64,000 nt of DNA from a virus (lineage: Duplodnaviria; Heunggongvirae; Uroviricota; Caudoviricetes). Every line of letters begins with the position of its first letter. Position 1 is the first letter of the stretch. A model generated the notes under the pieces. It ran no database searches and was not told the origin of the DNA. It saw only the letters and a list, made by a program, of their open reading frames with translations. This document shows positions 8,992 through 53,541 of this stretch, piece by piece. Position numbers and translations under genes: made by a program. The DNA lies in the IMG/VR virus record IMGVR_UViG_3300032312_000788, positions 74,986 to 138,985 of that record; one strand, written 5' to 3'.

Positions 8992-10065
8992 ATGCAAGTA
9001 AGAGATCAAGTAATACAAGCCCGACATAGTGGAAAAACTTATTCAGAAATATACAGAGAATTTGGAGTTGCTAAAAGCACTGCGATTGGGTGGTATAAAA
9101 GATGGATTGAAGATAATGAAGGTTATCAAACATTTGAAGAAACTAAGGTAGTTGGATATACGAATGATAATTTCCAAAGGGATCGTCCACAGAGATTTAA
9201 AAAAACTGAAGATGAGGTTTTAGAATTCTTATCGCAACTAGCCCCGATTAATATTGCTCCTAGATATGAGGAACCATCAAAGTTTGAATTAACAGATTAT
9301 GCTGTTGTGGGATCAGACTTCCACTTTGGTTGTCATGATCCGAAGGCTATTGATATTTTCTTAGAGGTTATTTTCCAATTGAAACCCAAGACCATTATTC
9401 TTAATGGTGATACGATGGACTTTTTGGCTATTTCGAAGTATCCAAAAGACATTAAGAAAAATTGGTCACTTCAAAAAGAACGTGAAGAATACCATGCGTT
9501 CTTACATGAACTTATTGGTATCTCTGGAGGTGCTAAGATCTATGAAACAACATCGAATCATAGTGGTCAAAGTATTGATGGAAGATGGAGACGATATTTA
9601 TCAGATAGACTTGGGGAACTTTCCTCATTAGATAACATTTCTGATATTCTTTCTTATGAAAAGGTTTTCATGGGGGATTATGCATCTAAGGTTGAGCATG
9701 TAGATTATGTTGATCTTAATGGATTGATTGTTACACATGGAACCACAGTTCGATCAAATGGTGGAGCATCTTGTTTAGGTGAAATCAATAAGTGGGGTTC
9801 AAGTATTCTACATGGTCATACTCATAGGATTGGAAGTTCAATGAAAAGAATTCCTGCCATTGGGCATAGACCAGAGCAACAATTGTTAGGTATCGAAGGT
9901 GGTTGCTTATGTAGTTTGGACGCAGTGTATGCATCCGCTCCAAATTGGAACCAAGGTTTCAATATTGTTTCTTTATCTAATAAAGATTCGTTTGGTGTGG
10001 AACAAATCTACATCAATAATGGAGTCGCAAATGTTTCTACATTGGGTAAGACCATTAGAGCTTGA
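8992..10065 (+). CDS. HTH domain fused to calcineurin-like metallophosphoesterase
   Basis: N-terminal HTH (GKTYSEIYREFGVAKSTAIGWYKRW); GSDFHFG, LNGDTMDF, HGHTHR metallophosphatase motifs. Confidence 0.6.
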   Translation: MQVRDQVIQARHSGKTYSEIYREFGVAKSTAIGWYKRWIEDNEGYQTFEETKVVGYTNDNFQRDRPQRFKKTEDEVLEFLSQLAPINIAPRYEEPSKFELTDYAVVGSDFHFGCHDPKAIDIFLEVIFQLKPKTIILNGDTMDFLAISKYPKDIKKNWSLQKEREEYHAFLHELIGISGGAKIYETTSNHSGQSIDGRWRRYLSDRLGELSSLDNISDILSYEKVFMGDYASKVEHVDYVDLNGLIVTHGTTVRSNGGASCLGEINKWGSSILHGHTHRIGSSMKRIPAIGHRPEQQLLGIEGGCLCSLDAVYASAPNWNQGFNIVSLSNKDSFGVEQIYINNGVANVSTLGKTIRA

Positions 10066-16645: not shown

Positions 16646-18037
16646 ATGAACATAAAAGTATCAGAAAACGCAGATCCAAATTACTTGGCTACTGTAATAA
16701 GATGTCCAGAAATTCGAGATCATCCGGGGGCTGACCGTTTATCGATTACAGAAATTTTTGGTAATACTGTGGTGTTGGGAAAAGGATCTTATGTGAAGGA
16801 TGACCTATGTGTTTACTTCCCTGTAGAATCTTGTCTATCGCCTAAGTTCTTGTCATGGGCTAATTTATACGATAAGGAAATTCTTAATGCTGATGGTAAG
16901 ACTAAGGGATTCTTCTCGCAGAAAGGTAATCGTGTAAAGGCTGTTAAATTACGTGGAATTCCATCTCAAGGATTTTTGTATAAGATCGAGGAATTGGCCA
17001 AATATTACAACATTTCTCCTAGAATTTTTGCCTTGGGTGAATCTTTTGATACTGTTGGTGAGGATTTACTTGTAACCAAATACATCAGACCAGAGGTTAA
17101 GTCAAACAATGAGAATAATACACCCAAGAATAAAATTCCTAAGTGGATTAATACAACTTTGGGTATTTTCCCTCGTCCTATCAGAAATACTATTTTCCCT
17201 GTAGTTAAGTGGTACTATGGTCTATCTAAGGACGATGGTATCAAGTCTCTTATTGTGGATGGACAATTCAAATTCCATGGCAAAACTGAACACTTGGGTA
17301 AGAACATTTGGTTGATCAATCCAGAGGATGAGATTACGATCACATCCAAGGCTCATGGAACCAGTGCAATCTTCGGTAATATTTTGAGTAAGCGTAAGCT
17401 TAGTTTAATTGAAAATATTAAACTGAAATTGGGTGTTGATGTAAAGACAACTGAATACACACTAGTTTATAGTAGTAGAAGTATTCTGAAGAATCGAAGA
17501 GATGGGAAATACACTGATGATGTGTGGGGTATTGAAGCATCTAAACTAGAGGGTATTATTCCAGAAGGTTATACTTTATTCGGAGAAATTGTTGGTCATA
17601 CACCCGGAGGTAAAACCATTCAAAAGAATTATGATTATGGAGTTCCTCTCACAGAATCGGATTTTTGGGTATATCGTATCACAGAAACTACTACTGATGG
17701 TGTAGTTAGGGAACTATCATTCCCAGAGATTTCGAAGTTGTGTGAAGAATTGTGCATCAAAACAGTCCCTCATTATTATACTGGAAAAGCCGAAGATCTA
17801 TTTCCCGATATCAAAGTGAATAAAGATTGGTCTACCAATTGGTTACACGCTTTGAAGGAGAAGTATCTCGATAAGAAATGTGAATTTTGTAAATCGGGTG
17901 TTGTAAATGAAGGAGTTGTTGTTAAGATCAATTCCAAGGATACAAAACCAGTCTTTAAATTCAAGTCTCCTTTATTTAACATAGCCGAGGGGAAACTTAG
18001 AGATAGTGAGTATGAAGATATAGAAGAATTAAATTGA
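16646..18037 (+). CDS. ATP-dependent RNA ligase, Rnl2/Rnl5 clade, with about 230-aa N-terminal extension
   Basis: motif I TSKAHGTSAIFGNI matches T4 Rnl2 KIHGTNFSLI (KxHGT); nucleotidyltransferase domain begins about residue 235. Confidence 0.6.
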   Translation: MNIKVSENADPNYLATVIRCPEIRDHPGADRLSITEIFGNTVVLGKGSYVKDDLCVYFPVESCLSPKFLSWANLYDKEILNADGKTKGFFSQKGNRVKAVKLRGIPSQGFLYKIEELAKYYNISPRIFALGESFDTVGEDLLVTKYIRPEVKSNNENNTPKNKIPKWINTTLGIFPRPIRNTIFPVVKWYYGLSKDDGIKSLIVDGQFKFHGKTEHLGKNIWLINPEDEITITSKAHGTSAIFGNILSKRKLSLIENIKLKLGVDVKTTEYTLVYSSRSILKNRRDGKYTDDVWGIEASKLEGIIPEGYTLFGEIVGHTPGGKTIQKNYDYGVPLTESDFWVYRITETTTDGVVRELSFPEISKLCEELCIKTVPHYYTGKAEDLFPDIKVNKDWSTNWLHALKEKYLDKKCEFCKSGVVNEGVVVKINSKDTKPVFKFKSPLFNIAEGKLRDSEYEDIEELN

Positions 18038-19098
18038 ATCAATCATCATATGAAAAAATGAGTCCAATTGGACTAAATATTCATATGGATAAAATACAAT
18101 ATATTAAAGATAATTATGGAATATTATCAAATTCTGAAATATCAGACTCACTAGGATTGAGTGTAAATCAAATTAGGTCGTTGGTATACAAACATATTCC
18201 TTTTGATGATAGATATAGGAGGGGTAAGTCTCCACATTCTAAACCAAAAAGAAAATTTAACGTAAACGATGAAAGTTTTTCTGAATATAACTTAAATTCT
18301 TGCTATTGGGCTGGATTAATGGCTGCTGATGGTCATATTACAAAAAAATGGGATTCGTTTTCGATTGGGTTGAAGGAGTCTGATAGATCACATATAGAGA
18401 AATTTAAGGTGTGGTTGAATTTCGATGGTCCAATATGCTATAACAAAAATAAATACTTATATAAAGGTGTAGAGCAAATGAAATATTCTTATTCTATAAA
18501 AGTCACTTCTAAAAAGATAGTGGAAGATTTAAATAATAATTTTGGTGTTATTAGAAAAAAGAGTTTGATAATCAAGCCTCCAACAAAGATAAAAGATGAT
18601 CAGCATATAGATTCTTTTATAAAAGGATATATTGATGGAGATGGTTCTTTATCTTTGGGTAAAGATAAAACATCGAGATTATCTATTTTGGGAACTTATG
18701 ACATGATTATTTGGATAAATGAAAGGTTTGAAAATATACTCGGTCGTCATTTACCGAAACCCATAAAAAATGGAAATGTGTGGAAGATTGATCTAGGTAA
18801 TAAAACATCTAGAAAACTTTTACAAACCTTTTTTAATATAAAAACACCAGAATTGGAAAGAAAATGGACTCCAGAACTGAGAGATATAGTCTTTAATTAT
18901 AAAAAGAGTAGAAATTTAGATAATTATAAAAATATTATAAGAATGCAAAGCGAAGGAATGAATCAAACAGAAATAAGCAAACATATTGGTGTTACCTCAG
19001 CAGCAATATGTTGGATTATGAAACAGGATTGTTTTAAAATCTTGAAGGAGAGTGCCGCTAGAGATAATGGAGAAGCTGATATGGAGGAAGAAAGTTAA
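18034..19098 (+). CDS. LAGLIDADG homing endonuclease with C-terminal HTH
   Basis: two LAGLIDADG motifs (YWAGLMAADGHI and KGYIDGDGSL); C-terminal HTH (TEISKHIGVTSAAICWIMK). Confidence 0.7.
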   Translation: MNQSSYEKMSPIGLNIHMDKIQYIKDNYGILSNSEISDSLGLSVNQIRSLVYKHIPFDDRYRRGKSPHSKPKRKFNVNDESFSEYNLNSCYWAGLMAADGHITKKWDSFSIGLKESDRSHIEKFKVWLNFDGPICYNKNKYLYKGVEQMKYSYSIKVTSKKIVEDLNNNFGVIRKKSLIIKPPTKIKDDQHIDSFIKGYIDGDGSLSLGKDKTSRLSILGTYDMIIWINERFENILGRHLPKPIKNGNVWKIDLGNKTSRKLLQTFFNIKTPELERKWTPELRDIVFNYKKSRNLDNYKNIIRMQSEGMNQTEISKHIGVTSAAICWIMKQDCFKILKESAARDNGEADMEEES

Positions 19099-19099
19099 T

Positions 19100-19261
19100 A
19101 TGAACGATAAATGGTATAATTCTGATTTTGCTGCATTGTTGGGTTTTGGTATTTTAGTGTTCTTATTATGTTTAGGTTTAGGGACGTGTACAAAAGTATC
19201 AGGTGGTCTACCACCGATCCAAGATAATAAAACACTAAATCATAATGTTGAACATGAATGA
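19100..19261 (+). CDS. small membrane protein
   Basis: start trimmed to internal Met; single TM segment. Confidence 0.3.
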   Translation: MNDKWYNSDFAALLGFGILVFLLCLGLGTCTKVSGGLPPIQDNKTLNHNVEHE

Positions 19262-20021
19262 ATCAATCAAAGAACATCCAGCCTTTGTGAATTGTGGGGG
19301 ACAATTGTTGGTTGAGCTTATCGGTGGATCGACTTTGTATGGACTGAATAATGAATCATCAGATATCGATTATCGTGGTTTGTTTATAGCTAGAGATAAA
19401 AAGTATATCAGTGGATTTGATACAATTGAGTCTATCGTTCAGGACAATGAAATCGATTCTACTTATTACGAACTCACTCGATATCTAAAGCTTTTGAGAA
19501 AATCTAATACTCAAGTATTAGAGATTCTATTCGCACCAGACGATGCCTTTACATATAAGTCTAATCTGTTTGACTATATTAGAGAAAACCGTTATGATCT
19601 AATCGAAACTAATATTTTGAAGTCTTCTCTGAAGGGTTATGTGTTCAGTGAGATTAGATTGGCTACGGGAGAAAGATCTGGTCAATTGGGTGGTAAACGA
19701 AAGGCTTCTGTCGTAAAGTATGGATACAGCCCGAAGAATTTTGTTCAAATTTTACGCTTATGTAAAGTGGGTCAAGTATTCTTCACCTCTGGAGATTACA
19801 TGGTTAAAGTGAAAGATTTCGATCCTAATTATCACGATTTTTTGATGGAAATCAAAACTAAACCAGAAAACTTCACAAAGGATGAATTATCCGGTTTGGT
19901 CGATGAAGAGTTTAAAAAACTAGAAAAAATCATGAATGAATCTACCATTAATTTCAAATTTGATGTTGATTTGGCTTCCGACATTGTTCTAGATGCGAGA
20001 TATGGCTACGAAGATTACTAA
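19245..20021 (+). CDS. Pol-beta-superfamily nucleotidyltransferase
   Basis: GGSTLYGLNNESSDIDYRG = hG[GS]x(9-13)DhD minimal NTase motif. Confidence 0.55.
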   Translation: MLNMNESIKEHPAFVNCGGQLLVELIGGSTLYGLNNESSDIDYRGLFIARDKKYISGFDTIESIVQDNEIDSTYYELTRYLKLLRKSNTQVLEILFAPDDAFTYKSNLFDYIRENRYDLIETNILKSSLKGYVFSEIRLATGERSGQLGGKRKASVVKYGYSPKNFVQILRLCKVGQVFFTSGDYMVKVKDFDPNYHDFLMEIKTKPENFTKDELSGLVDEEFKKLEKIMNESTINFKFDVDLASDIVLDARYGYEDY

Positions 20022-23517: not shown

Positions 23518-24495
23518 GTGGTATACACATTACAAGATAGGAAAAGTTGGCCAGTTACTACAGGCGTATATAAATTAACATTTATTAATTCAACATCTAA
23601 TAAAGTTTATATAGGAAGTTCTGCGAGTATTCGGAAAGGTAGTTATTACGGAATTAGAACTAGATGGGGTAAACACGCTGATTTACTTAAATTGGGAATA
23701 CATTATTCGAAAAAATTACAGTATGCATATAATAAGTATGGCGGAGAAAATCTTACATTCGAAATCATAGATTCTTGCGATGGTGGGAATATAATAGAGA
23801 TGGAGACGTTTTATATTACCAAATACGATAGTTGTAATAATGGTTACAATTCTAGACCAACCGCAGAAAGTAATGTCGGTTATAAAGTCCCCAAGTCTAT
23901 CATAGAAAAGACAAATATAACAAAAAGAAAGAAAAGGGAACCTTACGAAATCGATGTCCTTAAGCTTTATAAAGAAACCAAAAATGCTTTAGGTGTTTCG
24001 AGGGAATTGGGATTGAGTCATAGTGTAGTTTTAAAAATTTTAAAAGACTACAATATAATTCCAAAAAATGGAGATTATAAGCGGAAAAATGTCTACGCAT
24101 ACATGTTGGATGGGTGTTTTGTGGGAATATGGAAAGATGCTAGGAGTTGTGCTGATGCACTAAATCTTAAAAGTATTTGTAGTATATCTCATGTTGCTAT
24201 GGGTAAGAATATTTCATATAAAGGATATTTCTTTTCATATGAAAAGAAAACCAAAAGAGAGATAGTTGATTATATAAAAACTAGAATATGTGAAAGCAGA
24301 CAAAAAATGAGCAATCCAGATAAGTTGATACTTCGCAACATTGGTCAATATGATATGTCAGGGAACTTGATAAAGGTTTGGGAAACCTCAACAGAAATTA
24401 AAAAATATTTTGATATGTTCAATTTTTCCCCAATATCAGCGGTTTTTGCTGGAACAAAAAAACATTACAAAGGTTTCTTTTGGAAAAAAGAATAA
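23518..24495 (+). CDS. GIY-YIG homing endonuclease
   Basis: GVYKLTFINSTSNKVYIGSSASIRKG..RWGKH; long C-terminal DNA-binding region. Confidence 0.7.
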   Translation: MVYTLQDRKSWPVTTGVYKLTFINSTSNKVYIGSSASIRKGSYYGIRTRWGKHADLLKLGIHYSKKLQYAYNKYGGENLTFEIIDSCDGGNIIEMETFYITKYDSCNNGYNSRPTAESNVGYKVPKSIIEKTNITKRKKREPYEIDVLKLYKETKNALGVSRELGLSHSVVLKILKDYNIIPKNGDYKRKNVYAYMLDGCFVGIWKDARSCADALNLKSICSISHVAMGKNISYKGYFFSYEKKTKREIVDYIKTRICESRQKMSNPDKLILRNIGQYDMSGNLIKVWETSTEIKKYFDMFNFSPISAVFAGTKKHYKGFFWKKE

Positions 24496-25033: not shown

Positions 25034-25438
25034 ATGAAACAAAGAAATTTATTGGTGCTTAGGTCAGTTTCGGGTGCTGGTAAGACTACATTTTGTAATC
25101 TTTTTCCCGATGCTGTAGTATGCTGTGCAGATGATTACTTCACTGACAAGGATGGGAATTATAACTGGTATCTTGAAGGTCTTGGGAAAGCTCATGGATA
25201 TTGTTGGAACAAATTTGTCGATGCTGTTACTTCAACAACTAAGGATATCATCATTGCCAATGTTAACGCAAAACCTTCCGATTGGAACAAGTATGTGAAA
25301 GAAGCTGAAGATCTTGGGTTCATCGTAACTTTCATTGTGCTTGAAAATAGGCACGGTGGTAAGGATGTTCATAATGTTCCAGAAGAGACTCTACAACGCC
25401 AAGAGAAAACCATTAGAGAAAATCTTAAACTACGTTAA
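25034..25438 (+). CDS. P-loop kinase, polynucleotide 5'-kinase-like
   Basis: Walker A SVSGAGKTTF followed by CADDYFT, similar to T4 Pnk kinase GSGKST..NRDDYR. Confidence 0.5.
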   Translation: MKQRNLLVLRSVSGAGKTTFCNLFPDAVVCCADDYFTDKDGNYNWYLEGLGKAHGYCWNKFVDAVTSTTKDIIIANVNAKPSDWNKYVKEAEDLGFIVTFIVLENRHGGKDVHNVPEETLQRQEKTIRENLKLR

Positions 25439-25884: not shown

Positions 25885-26590
25885 ATCTGGAAATTACATT
25901 CAATTGACGAATTACCCTTTAGAATATTTCCAACCACTCTTCTCTGAAGAAAGGTGGAACGAAATCTTAGGAGTTGTTAATAACTGGATTAATCCTAAAT
26001 TGGATAGTGGTAGGACATTCAAATCTCTTATTATGAATCCCGAAACAGAATTATGTTTCAATGTGGGCGATAAGGATAATGTAGCCCAACATATGATGGA
26101 ATATATCCAAAAACAAGTTCTTGAGAAATATCTATCTCAAGAAGAAGTTCAGATGTGTAATTTCAAGGCCATGAATGCCCATTCTGAGGCTAGAGAAAAG
26201 AGAATCTATGATAGTGCTATAAAGGTAGATGAAGCCGATTATTGTCAACCTGTCTTTGAGGGTGACACTTTCTATTATGGTGGTGTAGATGATCTTAGAG
26301 ATATGTGGGATTATGATTATCCTCTTCCAGAGTATGTTTACGGTACAACCAAACTTTATACATTGAATAGTTGTGATTTGGATCAAGCTATCAATATTAT
26401 TCTAGAGCGTGTTGATGTAGAAGAAGATGATTTCATCAATATTTCAAAAATCCCAGAATATCTACAAGAAGCGTGGGATAAGTTTGTTGATGAAAATACT
26501 CAAGTATATTATGAAATCGATAATAAGACAGTAGTTTTACTCGATAAAACACTAAACCATAATGCTGAGTATGAAGCTACCAACGACTGA
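25871..26590 (+). CDS. hypothetical protein
   Basis: 239 aa. Confidence 0.4.
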   Translation: MKSNKSGNYIQLTNYPLEYFQPLFSEERWNEILGVVNNWINPKLDSGRTFKSLIMNPETELCFNVGDKDNVAQHMMEYIQKQVLEKYLSQEEVQMCNFKAMNAHSEAREKRIYDSAIKVDEADYCQPVFEGDTFYYGGVDDLRDMWDYDYPLPEYVYGTTKLYTLNSCDLDQAINIILERVDVEEDDFINISKIPEYLQEAWDKFVDENTQVYYEIDNKTVVLLDKTLNHNAEYEATND

Positions 26591-27134
26591 AGAATTCACT
26601 TACAAAGACTGTGTTATCGCAGGAGATGATTGCTGGCTTATCACTCCAAATCATATCGGTTGTAAGTGGAATGATGAAAATGCTCGTTTTCGTTCATGTA
26701 TTGTTCGTAAGTCGGATAATTTTGTAGTATCACAAGGGTTTGGGAAATTTACCAACTTTTCTGAACAACCAGATTTTCAACCATGGGATAAATCATGGAA
26801 GTTTGAAGCTCGTCATAAGTTGGATGGATGCTGTGACGAAAATACTATACTCTTTACAGAGGATGGTAATAAAACTATAAAGGAAATTTGTGATACTTTG
26901 TACATTGGAAAGGTGTTGGGATACAATCATAAAACTTCTCAAGAAGAGATGATTGATATATTGGCGCATTCTGTGAAATCCAATAACAACGATTGGTATG
27001 AATTGGAATTAGAAGACGGTAAGATTATTACCCTTACAGGAAACCATAAGGTGTATCTTCCTGAGTTGGATTGTTATCGAAGGGTTGAAGATTTGATAGG
27101 TGATGAAGTATTTTTATTGTCAAAAGGTGGATAA
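26562..27134 (+). CDS. Rnl1-type RNA ligase N-extein (about 89 aa) fused to split-intein N-terminal half
   Basis: GFGKFTNFSE..RHKLDG resembles T4 Rnl1 RPMEKFFNLNE..TKEDG (motif I KxDG); immediately followed by CCDENTILFTEDGNKTIKEI (intein block A) and LTGNHKVY (block B), then stop. Confidence 0.7.
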   Translation: MLSMKLPTTEEFTYKDCVIAGDDCWLITPNHIGCKWNDENARFRSCIVRKSDNFVVSQGFGKFTNFSEQPDFQPWDKSWKFEARHKLDGCCDENTILFTEDGNKTIKEICDTLYIGKVLGYNHKTSQEEMIDILAHSVKSNNNDWYELELEDGKIITLTGNHKVYLPELDCYRRVEDLIGDEVFLLSKGG

Positions 27135-28178
27135 TATCAACTTTATGACTAAATAAGTATATGACATGTCCATTTGAAAATATCCAGATAGAGTATAATG
27201 CAGCGTATACTAAAAGAATTTCTAAAAAATATCAACTTTCAGTAGACGAAGTTAAACATAAATTACTAACCGCCAATTTTCCTGAGATAGCGACAGAATC
27301 TAAATTCAGATTTTTTTATATAGACAGAGAATACTCTATACCCAAATTGGCTAGGGAATTCGGATTAAAATACTCCCAAATTGAATTTTTAATAAAATTT
27401 TATAATATTGCGAATAGGAATCATTCACAAGCAGCATCCACAAAATCTACAAGAAATCAGTATAAAAATACCTGCAATAAAAAGTATGGTGTTGATAATG
27501 TGAGTCAAATAGAAGAAGTCAAGAATAAAAAAGCGAACACATTCATATTAAACTATGGTGTAGATAATATTTGGAAATCTAAATCGTATTACGAATGGTT
27601 GGATACTTTCATGGTTGATAAGTATGGTAAAAGACGAATAACTGGAGACAATCAATCTGAAATTAGAAAAGAATATTGGAAAAATCTCCCATCTGATAAA
27701 AGAGAAGAAAGAATCAAAAAAATATTAGAAAATCTTCACACTGGATGTTATTCAAAACTCGAATCAAAAATATCAGTTATATTAGATGAATTTGAAATAC
27801 CTTATGAACGTTCATTTTGGCTGAACAAAAAACAATTCGACTTTAAAATTAAGGACAGTAATATCTTAATTGAAGTTCATGGAGATTTTTGGCACGCTAA
27901 TCCTTTAAAATACAAAGCTAATGACATATTAAACCATCCAAACAATCCAGTATCGGCTAAAGACTTATGGGAGAAAGATAGTAAAAAATTAAAGATGGCT
28001 AATTCTTACGGATATGATATAGTATATATTTGGGAGTCAGATATCAAAAACGATAAACACATAGAAATTTTATTCAATGAGATTAAAAAGTATAAAAAAG
28101 ATTGAGAATGGTTCAAAGAGATATGATATACAAACATCGTCTCAAAATTTTTATGCCAATAACATCTTGGTTCACAAC
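26829..28178 (+). mobile_element. split intein (IntN 26829..27134, IntC 28077..28178) with intervening free-standing homing endonuclease gene
   Basis: IntN and IntC lie in the same frame but are separated by stop codons; the endonuclease ORF sits between them in another frame. Confidence 0.65.
27161..28105 (+). CDS. free-standing homing endonuclease, Vsr-like / EDxHD-type catalytic domain
   Basis: C-terminal ILIEVHGDFWHANP..DIVYIWESD resembles Vsr FVDGCFWHGH core; sits between intein halves in a different frame. Confidence 0.55.
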   Translation: MTCPFENIQIEYNAAYTKRISKKYQLSVDEVKHKLLTANFPEIATESKFRFFYIDREYSIPKLAREFGLKYSQIEFLIKFYNIANRNHSQAASTKSTRNQYKNTCNKKYGVDNVSQIEEVKNKKANTFILNYGVDNIWKSKSYYEWLDTFMVDKYGKRRITGDNQSEIRKEYWKNLPSDKREERIKKILENLHTGCYSKLESKISVILDEFEIPYERSFWLNKKQFDFKIKDSNILIEVHGDFWHANPLKYKANDILNHPNNPVSAKDLWEKDSKKLKMANSYGYDIVYIWESDIKNDKHIEILFNEIKKYKKD

Positions 28179-29006
28179 TCTCTTCTCATCGTATCCAAGT
28201 ATAAGGGTGAACTCATTTGTAGAACCCGTGGAACCGTTGATGCTCGTCAGATGGCTAATGGGCATGAGATTGATGAACTCATTAAGAAGCATTACTTTTT
28301 CGAAACTCTAAAAAGAGGACCGGAAACTTATGGTGTGTCTTATCTCTTCGAATGGACGACCCCAAACAATATAATTGTATTAAGGGAACATAATGAACCA
28401 ACTTTAACTTTAGTTGGATCAGTTGCTAATGATTATGATGGGTGTGAGTATGCAACGCAATCTTATTTAGATTGCCTAGCTGAAATATATGGCTTTGATC
28501 GTCCACAAAAATACGAATACGACTCTATCGAAGAATGTCTCAAGGATGTTGCTGCTTGGAAAGGTAAAGAAGGTGTTGTATTGTATTCACCAGATGGGCA
28601 AACCTTAAAGAAGATCAAGGCTGATGAGTATTGTGAGCTTCATAAGATTTGCACTGGTATCAAGAATATCAATCAGGTATTAGATTTATTCATGACTACT
28701 GATAGATTTACTAAGTATGAGGATTTCTATAAGTATATCGAAATGACTATCGACTACGAAGTAGCTGAACGTCTCAAGGATGATTTATTAAAAATCGTTA
28801 CTGCTTATAACAAAGTCTTGGAAAAGATGAAGAAGGTTGATCATGTCATTGATGGTATCAGAGGTGATTCTTTCACTCGAAAGGATCAAGCTATGTGTAT
28901 CACACAACATTGGTCTGATTGGAGAAAATCCTACGGGTTCGTTACCCTAGACAATAAGGTAGTTGAAGACAAGCTTATCAAAGCTGCAATAGAATCAGAA
29001 TTATGA
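28077..29006 (+). CDS. split-intein C-terminal half (34 aa) fused to Rnl1-type RNA ligase C-extein
   Basis: NFYANNILVHN|S = intein block G with +1 Ser; extein SLLIVSKYKGEL..GTVDARQMANG..LFEWTTPNNIIVL parallels T4 Rnl1 SLVSTYLDGDEIL..GSIKSEQALMANG..FEFVAPTNRIVL. Confidence 0.7.
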   Translation: MRLKSIKKIENGSKRYDIQTSSQNFYANNILVHNSLLIVSKYKGELICRTRGTVDARQMANGHEIDELIKKHYFFETLKRGPETYGVSYLFEWTTPNNIIVLREHNEPTLTLVGSVANDYDGCEYATQSYLDCLAEIYGFDRPQKYEYDSIEECLKDVAAWKGKEGVVLYSPDGQTLKKIKADEYCELHKICTGIKNINQVLDLFMTTDRFTKYEDFYKYIEMTIDYEVAERLKDDLLKIVTAYNKVLEKMKKVDHVIDGIRGDSFTRKDQAMCITQHWSDWRKSYGFVTLDNKVVEDKLIKAAIESEL

Positions 29007-29587
29007 TAGATTATTTACAAGATTTAAAGAATAAATGTAAGGAGTTTTATCCTTATGTTGAGACTGTTCTAGAAGACCCTAGATTTTCTACATGTTCAGG
29101 TTCAGGTTCAGATATTCACCACCATTACGGTGATGGTGGACTGCTTCTACATACATATGAAGTGTATTCATATGGTGAGTTGATCGTTAATAAACATAAT
29201 TCAACATGTAGAGGTTGGGGAAATAGAGTGAATCCATTAGAAGTATTTATAAGTATTATCTGGCATGATTATGGTAAGATTTGGGATTACCAAAAAATTG
29301 ATGGAGTATGGGGAAAACACAATAACCACGCTCGTAAAATACATCATATTTCCAGATCAGCTATAGAGTGGGAAAGACATTATCCAGATATTGTAAGATC
29401 TGGTGTAATAACACCATGCCCAGTGAACGGAAATAGAATCACACACAATATTTTATCTCATCATGGACGAAGAGAATGGGGTAGTCCTGTTGCACCAGCT
29501 ACGAAAGAAGCATGGATTTTGCATCTTGCAGATAATTTGTCTGCTAGGTTGAATGATTGTGATAAACATGATATTATAAAACACTAA
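29003..29587 (+). CDS. HD-domain phosphohydrolase
   Basis: H..H, IIWHDYGK (HD), SHHG, LHLAD motifs. Confidence 0.55.
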   Translation: MIDYLQDLKNKCKEFYPYVETVLEDPRFSTCSGSGSDIHHHYGDGGLLLHTYEVYSYGELIVNKHNSTCRGWGNRVNPLEVFISIIWHDYGKIWDYQKIDGVWGKHNNHARKIHHISRSAIEWERHYPDIVRSGVITPCPVNGNRITHNILSHHGRREWGSPVAPATKEAWILHLADNLSARLNDCDKHDIIKH

Positions 29588-29830: not shown

Positions 29831-30070
29831 ATGAGTAAAAAAAATACCTTATGTATATCTCCCTCATGTGGACCGTGCTCGATGCTTAAATCTAAGCTAT
29901 CCAAACTGGGTCTAGAGGTAGAGGTAAAGGATTATAGCTTGGCTGGGGACAGAGAGTTTTTCATTAAACATGAAATTAGATCTGTCCCTCGCTTAGTTGT
30001 TGAGGATGGAGAAAACGTTACAATCATTCAAGGGATTGACGAAATCATTAAAGAAATAGAGAATGTATAA
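29831..30070 (+). CDS. thioredoxin/glutaredoxin-like protein
   Basis: SCGPCS active-site motif; 79 aa. Confidence 0.5.
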   Translation: MSKKNTLCISPSCGPCSMLKSKLSKLGLEVEVKDYSLAGDREFFIKHEIRSVPRLVVEDGENVTIIQGIDEIIKEIENV

Positions 30071-30722
30071 GATACTAAAATACAAATACGAAAATCGTAA
30101 CGATCATTTTTGGTCTACGGATTTTCATAATTATCATGATCCAAGTTGGCCAGTTCCTATTTGGAAAATGAGGGGTTACAACTCACCCGAAGAATCTTAT
30201 AATGATGTTAGAGAGAAGATCAATGCTAAGGTTGGAGAGAATCAAATCTTATGGATTCTTGGAGATAGCTTTCTGTCGGCTACCGATGGAGAAGTGATTG
30301 GTTGGTTGAATAGCATCAAGTGTCAAAATATCATGATGCTTTTCGGTAATCACGAATCACAGATGTATCGTCTCTATAAACAGGAAATGTTCAAACAATT
30401 CGGAACGGATGATATTGAAATCTATCCTCTTCGAATGGGTAATGTGGTATTTCTCGGTAATCATCAAGAAATCTGGATTGGTAAACAGCAGATTATCATG
30501 AATCATTTTCCTTTAAGGATCTGGCATGGGGATGCTAGAAGCTCATGGATGTTGTCTGGTCACTCTCATTTGCAAGATAAAGGACGTAGACCAGAATCAG
30601 CAGATCAAAAAGGATTAGATCTTGGTTGGGATTATAAAAATGATGTGTGGACTTACTCAGAGATTGAGGATGTGATGTCTACAAAATCGATACGCATTTT
30701 GGATCATAATAGGACACACTAA
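30063..30722 (+). CDS. calcineurin-like metallophosphoesterase
   Basis: ILGDSF, LFGNHE, SGHSH motifs. Confidence 0.55.
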   Translation: MYKILKYKYENRNDHFWSTDFHNYHDPSWPVPIWKMRGYNSPEESYNDVREKINAKVGENQILWILGDSFLSATDGEVIGWLNSIKCQNIMMLFGNHESQMYRLYKQEMFKQFGTDDIEIYPLRMGNVVFLGNHQEIWIGKQQIIMNHFPLRIWHGDARSSWMLSGHSHLQDKGRRPESADQKGLDLGWDYKNDVWTYSEIEDVMSTKSIRILDHNRTH

Positions 30723-36966: not shown

Positions 36967-38832
36967 ATGAAACTTCAATTCAAAAATTCACCAACTATTG
37001 CATCTGGAGATATGTCAGTATCTAAGATGGGAGTAGCTGAAGGTAATGCCGATATGCTCGCATATTTCTTGCGTGACAGAACATATACTAACAAGGTTCT
37101 TGCTTGTATTCGTGAAACTATCACCAATGCTCAAGATGAACACAATGAACATCACATTGATAAAGCTGTCGAAATTAAGTTGGGGATGATCAATAATCAA
37201 TATGTGTGGAGTGTGAGAGACTTTGCTAAAGGTTTGAGTGAAGAATCCATCAGAACAGTTTATGGTATGTATGGTGGAAGTGATAAGCGTGAGAACAATA
37301 AACAAGTCGGTGGATTTGGTATCGGTGCTCTTAGTCCTTTCGCTGTATCTGATACCTTTTACGTAACCTCTTATCATGAAGGATTAAAAACTCAATACGC
37401 TTGTATTCTCGGTGCTGGTGACAATGGTGTATCTGTGGGAGAAATCTATCGTGTATCAGATCCAGAACCGACAACAGAATCGGGTTTGGAGGTATCACTA
37501 GATGTAAACAAAAACTACTACAATTTCTCTACAGAATCAGCATTTTTTGTGGAACGCTTTCTACCGAATGCAAATATTAAATTTACAGATCAATATGATA
37601 ATGAACATACTCCTATTCAACCTCTCCTAACTAAGGATATCGGGGACTATACCATCAACTTATACCAAAGCACATTTTGGACACATCCTGATTATGTAGC
37701 CATTCGTATGGGTGGGATTGTTTACAATATGCGATCCGATATCAAGGTCGTGAACCCTCTGGGTAAGATCGTGGTGGATGTTCCAATTGGTAAGTTGACT
37801 GTCCCAATTTCTCGTGAAAGTATTGAAGATACTCCAAACAATAAAAAAGTTCTGGAGGAAATTACTGCTGCTATAATCCAACTTAGTGATGAAGATCGAT
37901 CCAAGATTGTTACCCCAAAATTTGGGGAAGCGATTTTAGAAAATAAGCATAATTCATACTATGAAGGTGAGTGGTTCAGATACTCATTCTCTAATACTTT
38001 CCCAGATACTTATAAAATTCAAAAATGTCTAAACTATATCCACACTGGATATGGTCATAATAAAACGACAGGTAAGTATGTGGTATATCAGATTCCAGAT
38101 ATCAAGTCATACAAAGGTTGGGTGAAGCGTCTTGATCAATATATTGCTGGGTTGTTTCCAAATACACAAATTGTTTGGATGCTTAATAAAGGTGATATTG
38201 TATCAACTGATACCTTGGATGTTTCTGATGTAACATTTGTAGACGTTAAGAAACTTGGTTTACCTAAACTAGCCAAAGATCCTAATGAGGTTAGGTATGT
38301 TGTGTATTTCAATGGTTACAAGAGAAATTTCACTGCTGAAGAATTGGATGAACATGTAACTGATAAGTCTTTCAACGGTGTTGAAATCGTAGATGGATGG
38401 GAAAAATCTATTGATAGTATCTCATACCTTAGACAACGCGTTATTGGATTGACTTCTGAGTGTGGTGTTAATAATCCTTATTGGGTTTGTAACTCTAAGA
38501 AGATGAAAGAACAACTTCTTGAATTGGGTTGGTTTGAACTAAATTCTCCAGAATATACAAAACGCTGCGCTGAGATCAATGTCATTGAGCAAGCCAAAAG
38601 AGATATGGAGAATGCCGAATATCGTGTTAAAAGTGCGATGTTTAGAATCCATCCATCTCAAAGACTGATCAAGGTCATTGGTAAAAATCCATCGAAGTTG
38701 ACTAGATTGGATGTAGTCAAGAGTAAGATTTTGAAGGAAAATTCTTTCCGAGGTAGGGTTTTGTCTAGTATTGAAACATACAACACAAAAATTACACGAG
38801 AAGATCTGCGTAAAATCCTTACAACAAAATAA
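36967..38832 (+). CDS. GHKL-family ATPase (Hsp90/MutL/MORC-like)
   Basis: ETITNAQDE (N box), VRDFAKG (G1), GGFGIGALS (G2). Confidence 0.5.
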   Translation: MKLQFKNSPTIASGDMSVSKMGVAEGNADMLAYFLRDRTYTNKVLACIRETITNAQDEHNEHHIDKAVEIKLGMINNQYVWSVRDFAKGLSEESIRTVYGMYGGSDKRENNKQVGGFGIGALSPFAVSDTFYVTSYHEGLKTQYACILGAGDNGVSVGEIYRVSDPEPTTESGLEVSLDVNKNYYNFSTESAFFVERFLPNANIKFTDQYDNEHTPIQPLLTKDIGDYTINLYQSTFWTHPDYVAIRMGGIVYNMRSDIKVVNPLGKIVVDVPIGKLTVPISRESIEDTPNNKKVLEEITAAIIQLSDEDRSKIVTPKFGEAILENKHNSYYEGEWFRYSFSNTFPDTYKIQKCLNYIHTGYGHNKTTGKYVVYQIPDIKSYKGWVKRLDQYIAGLFPNTQIVWMLNKGDIVSTDTLDVSDVTFVDVKKLGLPKLAKDPNEVRYVVYFNGYKRNFTAEELDEHVTDKSFNGVEIVDGWEKSIDSISYLRQRVIGLTSECGVNNPYWVCNSKKMKEQLLELGWFELNSPEYTKRCAEINVIEQAKRDMENAEYRVKSAMFRIHPSQRLIKVIGKNPSKLTRLDVVKSKILKENSFRGRVLSSIETYNTKITREDLRKILTTK

Positions 38833-38934
38833 TTTTGGGAATGATGAGAAGCATGGTGACTTCCAAGCCTGATCGGGTTAGCAATTGGTTTGAATCCAAT
38901 ATCATTATGGGAGGACGCTCCCACCCAATTCAAT

Positions 38935-38962
38935 TTATAAAACACTAGAATATAATAACAAT
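38935..38962 (+). promoter_or_regulatory. conserved gene-start motif
   Basis: TTATAAAACACTAGAATATAATAACAAT then ATG 38963. Confidence 0.5.
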
Positions 38963-39205
38963 ATGAAGCAAGTCAAATCATACGAAACTAAGGACGGTAA
39001 ACTATTTATGGATCGTCTACAAGCTGAACAACATGAACTGATGCTTAATATCAGAGGATTTCTACAATCATCTGGTAAAGGTCAAGGTTCTCTATCCGCT
39101 ACTGATGTAGCGACATTCCTTATGATGAACCAAGATCCACTTTATGATATTCTTGGTAAGTATCGTAGGACTGTTGGTGGAATTAAATCAAATATGAACC
39201 GTTGA
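38963..39205 (+). CDS. hypothetical protein
   Basis: 80 aa. Confidence 0.3.
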   Translation: MKQVKSYETKDGKLFMDRLQAEQHELMLNIRGFLQSSGKGQGSLSATDVATFLMMNQDPLYDILGKYRRTVGGIKSNMNR

Positions 39206-39240
39206 CATTATAAAACACTAAGATATTCTAAACATAGATT

Positions 39241-40239
39241 ATGAAATACGCAATTAACACAGAAGCAATTATTCTTTTTATTAACGGAAAGAATATCCGC
39301 GTTGAGAAGACTGATCAACGATATCCAAAAATTATCAAAGTCTTTCAACTACCAAAAGATGAGCAAGAAGCAGAAGTTGAAGCTATCCTTAATAAGGTCG
39401 TCAAGGCTGATAAGGTTATCGAAGAAACTGAAGGATTTGATATCCAAGGTGAAGAAATCTTCTATAAGGGCGAGAAGCTTCCTAAAGCTTTCTCAGATAA
39501 GGTTTTGTCTATCATCGCTGATGGACTCCCATTGGAACACTTTGAGAAGTTCTGGGCTAACCTAGAGCAAAATCCAAGTGCTCAGAGTGTGAAGGAATTG
39601 ACAGAATTCCTAGACTATAAGGAACTACCTCTCACAGAAGATGGTTGCTTCCTTGCCTATAAGGGTGTCAATTATAACTATTTTTCGTCACATGGAAATT
39701 TGAATACTAAGGTCATTCAGGGTGAAGTTAATTCTGATGGACAAATTTATAATGGAGTAGGATCTGTTATTGAAGTTCGTCGTCGTGATGTTGATGATAA
39801 TCGTGAAAAACATTGTTCATTCGGTCTTCATGCTGGATCATTGGACTACGCAAGGGGATTTGCGTCTCGTATGGTAGTTGTTAAGATCAACCCCGCTGAT
39901 GTTGTATCAGTTCCATCTGATTGTAATTGTCAAAAGGTCCGTGTGTGTAAATATGAAGTTATGTCAGACTTTGTAGAAGAAATTACAGCACCCGTTGTTG
40001 ATGAGGATGGAGAAAATACAATTGTTCCCGATCTTGTTAAGGAATTGGATGCCTTTGTAGCGAAGGTTGATAATTATCTCACTAAGAAGAGGGATGAAGG
40101 TTACACAGAAGTAACTATTCGACAAATCCAAAATATTTTCTCTCCTAATTGGGCGACCAAGGAACAAGTATTGAATGCTCTTCAACAACTTGGAGAATAT
40201 TGGACGACTACTGATGGACTTACAACTGTTCATCTGTGA
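39241..40239 (+). CDS. hypothetical protein
   Basis: 332 aa. Confidence 0.4.
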   Translation: MKYAINTEAIILFINGKNIRVEKTDQRYPKIIKVFQLPKDEQEAEVEAILNKVVKADKVIEETEGFDIQGEEIFYKGEKLPKAFSDKVLSIIADGLPLEHFEKFWANLEQNPSAQSVKELTEFLDYKELPLTEDGCFLAYKGVNYNYFSSHGNLNTKVIQGEVNSDGQIYNGVGSVIEVRRRDVDDNREKHCSFGLHAGSLDYARGFASRMVVVKINPADVVSVPSDCNCQKVRVCKYEVMSDFVEEITAPVVDEDGENTIVPDLVKELDAFVAKVDNYLTKKRDEGYTEVTIRQIQNIFSPNWATKEQVLNALQQLGEYWTTTDGLTTVHL

Positions 40240-53465: not shown

Positions 53466-53541
53466 CCTCCTATAACTCAACGGTCAGAGTAGCGGTTTCA
53501 TAAACCGTTAGTTACCAGTTCGAATCTGGTTAGGAGGACCA
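53466..53541 (+). tRNA. tRNA anticodon CAU (Met, or Ile2 if lysidinylated), CCA encoded
   Basis: hand-folded: acceptor CCTCCTA/TAGGAGG; D-arm ACTC-AACGGTCA-GAGT; anticodon arm GCGGT-TTCATAA-ACCGT; T-arm ACCAG-TTCGAAT-CTGGT; discriminator A; CCA. Confidence 0.85.

Follow-up and report, generated by a model that had tools for sequence, protein, structure and literature searches.

Fractured genes, in which split inteins accompany a free-standing endonuclease gene, have been described in 26 loci with eight types of host, i.e. gp41 helicase, IMPDH, DnaE, NrdA, NrdJ, one DNA ligase, terminase and one unknown (Dassa et al. 2009, PMC2677866). There is no RNA ligase among these hosts. The endonuclease gene overlaps the C-terminal intein half (IntC) by 6–69 bp in 15 of the published loci, and in 15 of 16 a hairpin, often with the late-promoter motif TATAAATA, lies upstream of the endonuclease start (PMC2677866). 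Here, we analyse a stretch of 64,000 nucleotides (hereafter the window) from a virus of the Caudoviricetes (IMG/VR record IMGVR_UViG_3300032312_000788, positions 74,986 to 138,985), in which a gene of the T4 RNA ligase 1 (Rnl1) type is interrupted. A reading of the DNA letters made before this analysis (the original prediction) had noted that split inteins with a free-standing endonuclease are known as fractured genes, and the published class does match the layout of the window. We consider it very probable that the locus is a fractured gene whose split intein trans-splices the two products to an active Rnl1-type ligase. The splicing, the cleavage by the endonuclease and the activity in RNA repair are what we infer from sequence.

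An Rnl1-type RNA ligase gene in two halves

Re-calling the open reading frames (ORFs) at the locus gave 26562..27134 (190 aa), 27161..28105 (314 aa) and 28077..29006 (309 aa). The first and the third are in one frame, since both start coordinates are divisible by 3, and the endonuclease ORF runs 29 nt into the start of the C-half. This three-ORF layout, including the shared frame and the overlap, agrees with the original prediction to the coordinate. The same holds for the ORF of the N-half at 26562..27134, but the ATG at 26571 (MKLPT...) is a likelier start than the one at 26562: public gene calls (187-aa product) and uninterrupted homologues begin there. All the motif strings that had been read are present (KLDG/CCDENTILFTEDGNKTIKEI, LTGNHKVY, NFYANNILVHN/S and EVHGDFWH; a slash marks an intein boundary), and the N-terminal intein half (IntN) measures 101 aa instead of about 90. 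The features of the locus are:

26571..26828, + strand: N-extein of the Rnl1-type RNA ligase, 86 aa from ATG 26571 (89 aa from ATG 26562), ending K-L-D-G
26829..27134, + strand: IntN, a class-1 split-intein N-half of 101 aa (CCDENT..., block B TGNH), with its TAA stop at 27132-27134
27135..27160, + strand: spacer of 26 nt from the IntN stop to the endonuclease start
27161..28105, + strand: free-standing homing endonuclease gene, 314 aa, EDxHD/Vsr-like, in a frame that differs from that of the ligase pieces
28077..28178, + strand: IntC, 34 aa (MRLKSIKKIENGSKRYDIQTSSQNFYANNILVHN), its first 29 nt shared with the 3' end of the endonuclease ORF
28179..29006, + strand: C-extein of the Rnl1-type ligase, 275 aa and a stop, with the +1 Ser of KLDG/SLLIV, motifs III, IV and V and the C-terminal domain

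The motif I K-L-D-G at the end of the N-extein holds the predicted adenylylated lysine. IntC has its own ATG, 943 nt downstream of the TAA stop of IntN, which places the halves on separate polypeptides. Between the N-half and the C-half, the translation of the ligase frame is riddled with stop codons, and an in-frame TGA upstream of the endonuclease start closes the endonuclease frame. Hence, no single frameshift could give one ORF. This bears on the possibility that an ordinary intein, contiguous and with an endonuclease domain nested in it, was broken by an error of assembly or sequencing, as could be suspected from the rare contiguous mini-intein relatives at the same site (P0240, see below). 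Besides these stops, the endonuclease begins at its own start codon, and where it overlaps IntC the two are read in different frames. Proteins identical to the N-half, the endonuclease and the C-half of the window, encoded in the same order, are found on independently assembled JGI and ENA contigs of 139–150 kb, and the layout has been assembled in at least two samples. The same three ORFs occur in four further diverged Rnl1 loci (L009, L013-L015, L016/L017 from a freshwater metagenome, and L018), as well as in one RNA-ligase (L020) and two DNA-ligase loci (L019 and L021). Extein identity among the loci that share the layout is as low as 28–38%. The overlap between endonuclease and IntC spans 11–41 nt in seven of eight loci, with a 56-nt gap instead in L013. 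The recurrence in at least two samples and in four further diverged Rnl1 loci excludes a sequencing artefact, and we give a negligible probability to the idea of a broken contiguous intein.

The split state is also the common one among homologues. Database searches retrieved dozens of proteins of 184–220 aa made of an Rnl1 N-extein ending in KxDG followed by about 99 aa of IntN, and an exhaustive HMMER search returned 805 representative clusters at E ≤ 1e-3, or 255 at E ≤ 1e-10. The pooled proteins comprise 221 split N-halves, counted as such when no more than 25 aa follow IntN, together with 14 C-halves, 5 middle pieces and 3 contiguous forms. These abrupt ends are a further argument against an artefact. 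By similarity of the N-extein, 99 of the 221 N-halves are of the Rnl1 type. A word-indexed search had given no match that extended over both halves, as if the intein lineage were always split, and we discarded this notion when the exhaustive search found the three contiguous mini-inteins. The lineage is thus overwhelmingly, but not exclusively, split in the collected set. The contiguous forms sit at the motif I site of an Rnl1-type ligase (P0240, 520 aa), a DNA ligase (P0322, 523 aa) and a PHA02142-type protein (P0359, 663 aa). At the join of P0240 (...FLLREGG-MKLKSIRKIEN...), the C-terminus of a split IntN abuts the start methionine that IntC has in fractured alleles, which suggests either that a fractured allele lost its endonuclease or that the contiguous form is ancestral. 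Further copies of the intein or of the endonuclease were searched for in the window and none was found.

When the exteins are joined in silico, they form a protein of 361 aa and 42.1 kDa, slightly heavier than the 41 kDa or so first proposed. This product matches Pfam RNA_lig_T4_1 with 51.2 bits (cut-off 28.3) over residues 44–229, i.e. across the junction, while neither half alone reaches the threshold of the Pfam ligase model. Membership in the Rnl1 family with an intact motif I KxDG therefore holds only after splicing in silico. The match to phrog_562, the T4 Rnl1 family, is near full length (E 1.8e-33, to position 360 of 377); the C-extein half alone gives E 1.3e-24. In the alignment with the structure of T4 Rnl1 (2c5u; phmmer E 6e-7), KEDGSL of T4 faces KLDG/SL, and motifs III, IV and V read FEF, EGYV and FKIK in T4 and FEW, EGVV and KKIK in the spliced product. 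The profile search proposed to verify that the exteins are Rnl1-like thus bore this out. Searches with tblastn against cultured phages gave one-piece alignments (residues 35–363) to annotated RNA ligases, all at less than 60% identity, whereas a megablast search with the locus found nothing in 50,697 phage records, i.e. that collection holds no cultured close relative.

The gene is mostly uninterrupted in relatives on viral contigs, and the 677 homologues of the C-extein are mostly uninterrupted Rnl1 of about 360 aa. Two such empty alleles are particularly informative. In L008, residues 1–89 of the N-extein (92% identical) abut residues 35–309 of the C-half (74% identical) in one ORF, and the junction reads ...HKLDGSLLIVS.... 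In L022 (protein P0236, JGI 3300012347, a cluster-mate of the C-half; 92.4% DNA identity), the uninterrupted ligase of 361 aa is identical to the predicted spliced product at 351 of 361 positions with 0 gaps. Such a one-piece, ungapped alignment of the rejoined exteins to a natural ligase indicates that the layout is not due to chance. The insertion site in both empty alleles is ...CATAAGTTGGATGGA/TCGCTGTTGATCGTGTCA..., and these alleles show that the intein boundaries are exact. Occupied and empty alleles thus coexist among closely related phages.

Next to the insertion site, the first 18 nt of the C-extein (28179-28196) have six synonymous differences between the window (TCT CTT CTC ATC GTA TCC) and L022 (TCG CTG TTG ATC GTG TCA), for an overall divergence of 7.6%. 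This cluster may be a co-conversion tract or reflect variation of the target site. When the DNA directly 3' of the insertion site was compared between occupied and empty loci, there was no consistent nucleotide difference.

The split intein, its endonuclease and signs of selection

The flanking segments had been read as intein halves and a profile search had been proposed. Fused, IntN and IntC pass the cut-offs of Pfam Intein_splicing PF14890 (39.3 bits, cut-off 35.8), with IntC matching positions 122–155 of the model, and of TIGR01445 (33.3 bits, cut-off 24.5); the score against TIGR01443 is slightly below the cut-off (14.8 vs 15.6). The fused halves match the NrdJ-1 split intein (8ubs, E 1.7e-10), to whose IntC that of the window aligns, and less closely gp41-1 (6qaz, E 1e-3). 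An AlphaFold model of the halves, fused as one chain and not as a complex, has a HINT fold (predicted local distance difference test, pLDDT, 82.9). Its top Foldseek match in PDB is again 8ubs (template modelling score, TM, 0.87; root-mean-square deviation 1.9 Å), followed by DnaB, DnaE and gp41-1 inteins. The structure prediction suggested for IntN plus IntC therefore returned the fold, for a single chain in place of the complex.

We compared the splicing residues in eight loci spanning three host families. Cys1 (KLDG/C) and the T and H of block B TxxH are invariant in these loci and in 53 N-halves. The Asp of block F (in RYDI) and the terminal His-Asn (VHN) are invariant across the eight loci, and the +1 residue is always Ser or Cys. 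IntN is acidic (net charge -10, isoelectric point 4.6) and IntC basic (net charge +4, isoelectric point 10), a pattern that recurs in all eight loci and resembles that of other natural split inteins. Inteins hosted by Rnl1 nearly always start with Cys-Cys (CCD or CCH; 26829-26834 in the window), while those of PHA02142 and DNA ligases start with CL, CV or CA. An effect of this vicinal cysteine on splicing through redox is conceivable.

The comparison of the window with L018 gave dN/dS values of 0.037 for IntN, 0.10 for the endonuclease and 0.10–0.14 for IntC. These values show that all three parts of the cassette are under purifying selection and functional. The cassette dS is 0.26–0.92, whereas synonymous sites of the exteins are saturated (proportion of synonymous differences pS 0.80–0.85). 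Protein identity follows the same trend, with 86–94% in the cassette and 54–77% in the exteins, and this is so in all comparisons. The higher conservation of the cassette relative to its host gene points to homing: its spread from lineage to lineage is more recent than the divergence of the host genes. The composition also differs, with a GC content of 27–28% in the endonuclease and IntC vs 37–38% in the exteins (endonuclease 28% vs 34% in the window).

Could the ligase be a decaying pseudogene, inactivated by the insertion of a free-standing endonuclease gene, with the flanking ORFs as remnants? Rnl1 might be dispensable, given that the phage encodes a second RNA ligase, this one uninterrupted (16646-18037), and most homologues are uninterrupted alleles. 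But both halves are full-length and colinear with intact ligases, without indels, and ligase motifs I, III, IV and V are intact. Non-synonymous divergence of the exteins is far below the synonymous one, the cassette dN/dS is 0.04–0.14, and the same layout has been kept over deep divergence of the exteins, with identities down to 37–41%. We therefore regard decay as highly improbable, compared with a fractured gene that still codes for a ligase.

Another explanation is that the halves assemble non-covalently, with the intein segments as mere interaction domains, as in NrdA/mobE of Aeromonas phage Aeh1. In that phage, a fragmented enzyme is reportedly reassembled without splicing (PMC3045599), and splicing at the window locus is a prediction from sequence. 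However, the invariance of all splicing residues in eight loci and three host families, together with the low dN/dS of IntN, is difficult to reconcile with a role in association alone. Furthermore, the break lies within motif I, where a retained HINT domain of 135 aa would occupy the active site. The closest solved relative, NrdJ-1, reportedly trans-splices fast in experiments. We thus find non-covalent assembly very unlikely, and trans-splicing the better account of the two halves.

The middle ORF had been predicted to be Vsr/EDxHD-like, and several profile matches agree. The 314-aa protein matches Pfam DUF7487 in its N-terminal region (33.3 bits, cut-off 27) and the homing endonuclease family phrog_3339 (E 8.6e-11), and its catalytic core reads ...FDF...EVHGDFWH...KD...WE. 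The match to Vsr TIGR00632 (E 0.006) is far under the family cut-off, as would be expected of a distant relative. When a profile of five orthologues was searched against PDB, the top match was I-Bth0305I (3r3p, E 3.9e-4), then E. coli Vsr (1cw0, E 6.7e-3). Residues D227, E238, D242, H245 and D273 are invariant in the five orthologues and align with the cores of both proteins; they are the counterparts of the Vsr-type catalytic residues known from the EDxHD family (PMC3239194; PMC2677866). A single-sequence phmmer search against PDB had only spurious matches to Csm3 (E 0.2), and the five-sequence profile was needed.

Together, these elements suggest the following mechanism. The Rnl1-type gene of a T4-like aquatic phage is broken after the glycine of motif I (KLDG/S) by IntN, an endonuclease gene and IntC. 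Two polypeptides would be made, N-extein-IntN (21.6 kDa) and IntC-C-extein (36.0 kDa), whose acidic IntN and basic IntC would associate and fold into a HINT domain. Class-1 protein trans-splicing would then proceed via Cys1, the block B TxxH, the block F Asp, the terminal His-Asn and Ser+1, and yield the 361-aa, 42.1-kDa ligase with its KLDGSL motif restored. Since the lysine of motif I is on one chain and motifs III–V are on the other, neither half should be active by itself. The endonuclease would cut intein-less Rnl1 alleles at or near the sequence coding for KLDG/SLLIVS (...AAGTTGGATGGA/TCN...), and repair of the cut allele would copy the whole cassette in, i.e. homing.

Several observations count against this scenario. 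The support for splicing, endonuclease cleavage and ligase activity is computational throughout. Taken separately, the intein halves miss the Pfam Intein_splicing cut-off (22 and 17 bits) and only their fusion passes it, while the multiple sequence alignment behind the structure model covered IntN only. The likeness of the endonuclease to I-Bth0305I and Vsr is weak (E 1e-4 to 1e-2). Finally, the spacer upstream of the endonuclease in the window has no significant hairpin (z -0.3 to -1.4), and the late-promoter motif TATAAATA is absent from the locus and under-represented across the window.

The hairpin upstream of the endonuclease is not significant in L018, L016 and L019 either, which means that the regulatory element of fractured genes is not universal in this cassette family. 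An upstream hairpin or promoter is an accessory feature of fractured genes and not a defining one. In the region upstream of the endonuclease, sigma-70-like sites do not stand out from shuffled controls, and the + strand has no terminator. Strong hairpins between the IntN stop and the endonuclease start were observed at L009:2173-2240 (z -6.5), L013:5569-5690 (z -3.3), L020:4429-4519 (z -2.3) and L021:4306-4396 (z -2.8).

The cassette in other ligases and the neighbourhood of the locus

Homologous cassettes, with IntN, a DUF7487 endonuclease and IntC, occupy the same KxDG motif in other families of ligases:

L020:3501-6230: cassette in a PHA02142/PF09414 RNA ligase, at motif I KxDG
L019:3501-5861: cassette in an ATP-dependent DNA ligase, at motif I KxDG, with Cys at +1
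L021:3501-6194: cassette in an ATP-dependent DNA ligase, at motif I KxDG, with Cys at +1

The IntN of L020 is 59% identical to that of the window even if the exteins are from different families. That intein halves are far more alike across hosts than exteins indicates switching between gene families. Other related insertions are found at KxDGEN/, at the TDE(E/P)R/ motif of PHA02142 ligases and at TRGDG/ of an NAD-dependent ligase.

In two independent samples, a PHA02142-type RNA ligase is in three pieces, separated by two related split inteins (L023:3227-7124 and L024:3227-7124, from Logan SRR27686863 and SRR15461344). The order is a 252-aa piece (OB domain and IntN), a DUF7487 endonuclease, a 163-aa middle piece, an ORF of the size of an endonuclease and a 201-aa piece (IntC and RNA_ligase domain). 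The middle piece (P0214) consists of IntC, a 26-aa extein ending in KLDG, and IntN. Such a ligase would need two trans-splicing reactions, 21–27 residues apart, by related inteins; we know of no described natural case. Similar middle pieces were seen in P0219 (an NAD-dependent ligase), P0225, P0304 and P0310.

The distribution of cassettes across families is observed directly in the retrieved loci. We tentatively propose, as a possible if rather doubtful account, that one lineage of split intein and EDxHD endonuclease has repeatedly colonized the universal KxDG adenylylation motif of non-orthologous covalent nucleotidyltransferases in aquatic phages, i.e. Rnl1, PHA02142/Rnl2-like RNA ligases and ATP-dependent DNA ligases; LigA has related insertions. 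It would cross families because the endonuclease recognizes the DNA of the shared motif, and the insertion of two cassettes would give the three pieces of L023 and L024. Ectopic homing directed by the motif and a regulatory role of splicing are speculations. If the proposal is true, repair of both RNA and DNA in these phages would hang on one or two trans-splicing reactions, a possible post-translational switch.

A fractured gene for the large subunit of ribonucleotide reductase was also retrieved (L007:2790-6032). Its IntC is 54% identical to that of the window, and it belongs to the published NrdA class. It has two ORFs between the halves and further GIY-YIG-like ORFs downstream.

Several genes around the locus are related to RNA repair. 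The second RNA ligase has 463 aa, with a PHA02142 OB domain and PF09414, and is directly followed by an ORF with LAGLIDADG_3 and helix-turn-helix matches (18034-19098), probably a free-standing homing endonuclease. An RlaP-family RNA-repair nucleotidyltransferase is encoded at 19245-20021. Candidate genes for RNA end healing surround the ligase (25034-25438, 29003-29587, 30063-30722 and 8992-10065) and code for a P-loop kinase-like protein, an HD phosphohydrolase and two metallophosphoesterases. The first of these proteins matches AAA_33 and, weakly, a polynucleotide-kinase PHROG. The HD gene lies directly downstream of the ligase and is missing in the close relatives L022 and L008, which makes it an indel polymorphism. 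RNA repair is the probable role of the window's ligase. A further free-standing endonuclease gene, a 325-aa ORF matching GIY-YIG and NUMOD homing endonuclease families (23518-24495), is about 2 kb upstream of the ligase locus. The presence of rIIA-like (621 aa) and rIIB-like (332 aa) ORFs within 36967-40239, about 400 nt apart, indicates that the phage is T4-like; for the rIIB-like ORF, the match is confined to the C-terminal part of the profile. There is a tRNA-Met gene at 53466-53541.

In public databases, the N-halves are labelled 'hypothetical protein' or 'tRNA splicing ligase', and the endonuclease cluster 'G:T-mismatch repair DNA endonuclease'. One N-half is filed under a Patescibacteria metagenome-assembled genome (MDA3803155.1). 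With fractured ligase genes mis-annotated or under-annotated, the content of RNA ligase genes in phage metagenomes is miscounted.

Comparison with known systems

The enzyme itself is best compared with T4 RNA ligase 1 (gp63, Rnl1; PDB 2c5u and 5tt6). The spliced product matches the families of the T4 enzyme near full length and shares motif I KxDGSL as well as motifs III, IV and V. However, the similarity is distant and the window gene is fractured. A role in tRNA repair like that of the T4 protein is suggested by family membership and neighbouring genes only.

The endonuclease resembles I-Bth0305I (PDB 3r3p), the founding characterized EDxHD homing endonuclease (Taylor et al. 2011, PMC3239194), in its C-terminal Vsr-like core with conserved acidic, His and Asp residues. 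The N-terminal regions have no demonstrable homology (DUF7487 in the window enzyme) and the similarity is weak. The genetic context also differs: I-Bth0305I is encoded in a group I intron of recA, whereas the window enzyme is free-standing between intein halves. The occupied and empty alleles, 97% identical at the protein level, offer a natural system to study EDxHD homing and co-conversion in phage populations.

Ligases for RNA repair that are interrupted at a conserved site are known from the RtcB inteins (NCBIfam NF038162) and from actinobacteriophage inteins in 'RtcB-like RNA ligase' and 'tRNA-splicing ligase' (bioRxiv 10.1101/2025.01.02.630785). These inteins are contiguous and their hosts are not Rnl1, whereas the window intein is split and has a separate endonuclease gene. 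The 2025 survey of actinobacteriophages lists contiguous inteins in RtcB-like and tRNA-splicing ligases, and none in Rnl1 (bioRxiv 10.1101/2025.01.02.630785). Searches of the open-access full-text literature for intein or split intein together with RNA ligase or Rnl1 gave no report of an Rnl1 intein.

In nrdA/mobE of Aeh1, a free-standing homing endonuclease gene reportedly also splits the gene of an essential phage enzyme into two ORFs. That case involves no intein and the reassembly is non-covalent (PMC3045599), whereas the window locus has complete intein halves.

If the predicted splicing is true, the RNA-repair enzyme Rnl1 joins the proteins assembled by natural protein trans-splicing. 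The inteins would also be of practical interest, as a large, unannotated family of naturally split inteins related to NrdJ-1, with Ser+1 variants among the candidate orthogonal tools. To our knowledge, few of the trans-splicing inteins used in protein engineering are as fast as NrdJ-1.

The fractured genes from GOS data (gp41-1, NrdJ-1, IMPDH-1, NrdA, DnaE, terminase and DNA ligase; Dassa et al. 2009, PMC2677866) remain the closest system. They differ from the window locus in their hosts, here an Rnl1-type RNA ligase, and in the upstream hairpin or late promoter, not detectable in the window. They share with it the two host ORFs on the same strand, each with an intein half, and a GIY-YIG or Vsr-like endonuclease between the halves whose 3' end overlaps IntC, by 29 nt in the window. 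They are also of phage origin, and both NrdJ-1, the nearest solved structure to the window intein, and gp41-1 come from the original fractured-gene paper (PMC2677866). Rnl1 is thus a new host protein of a known arrangement, mechanistically expected and abundant in metagenomes.

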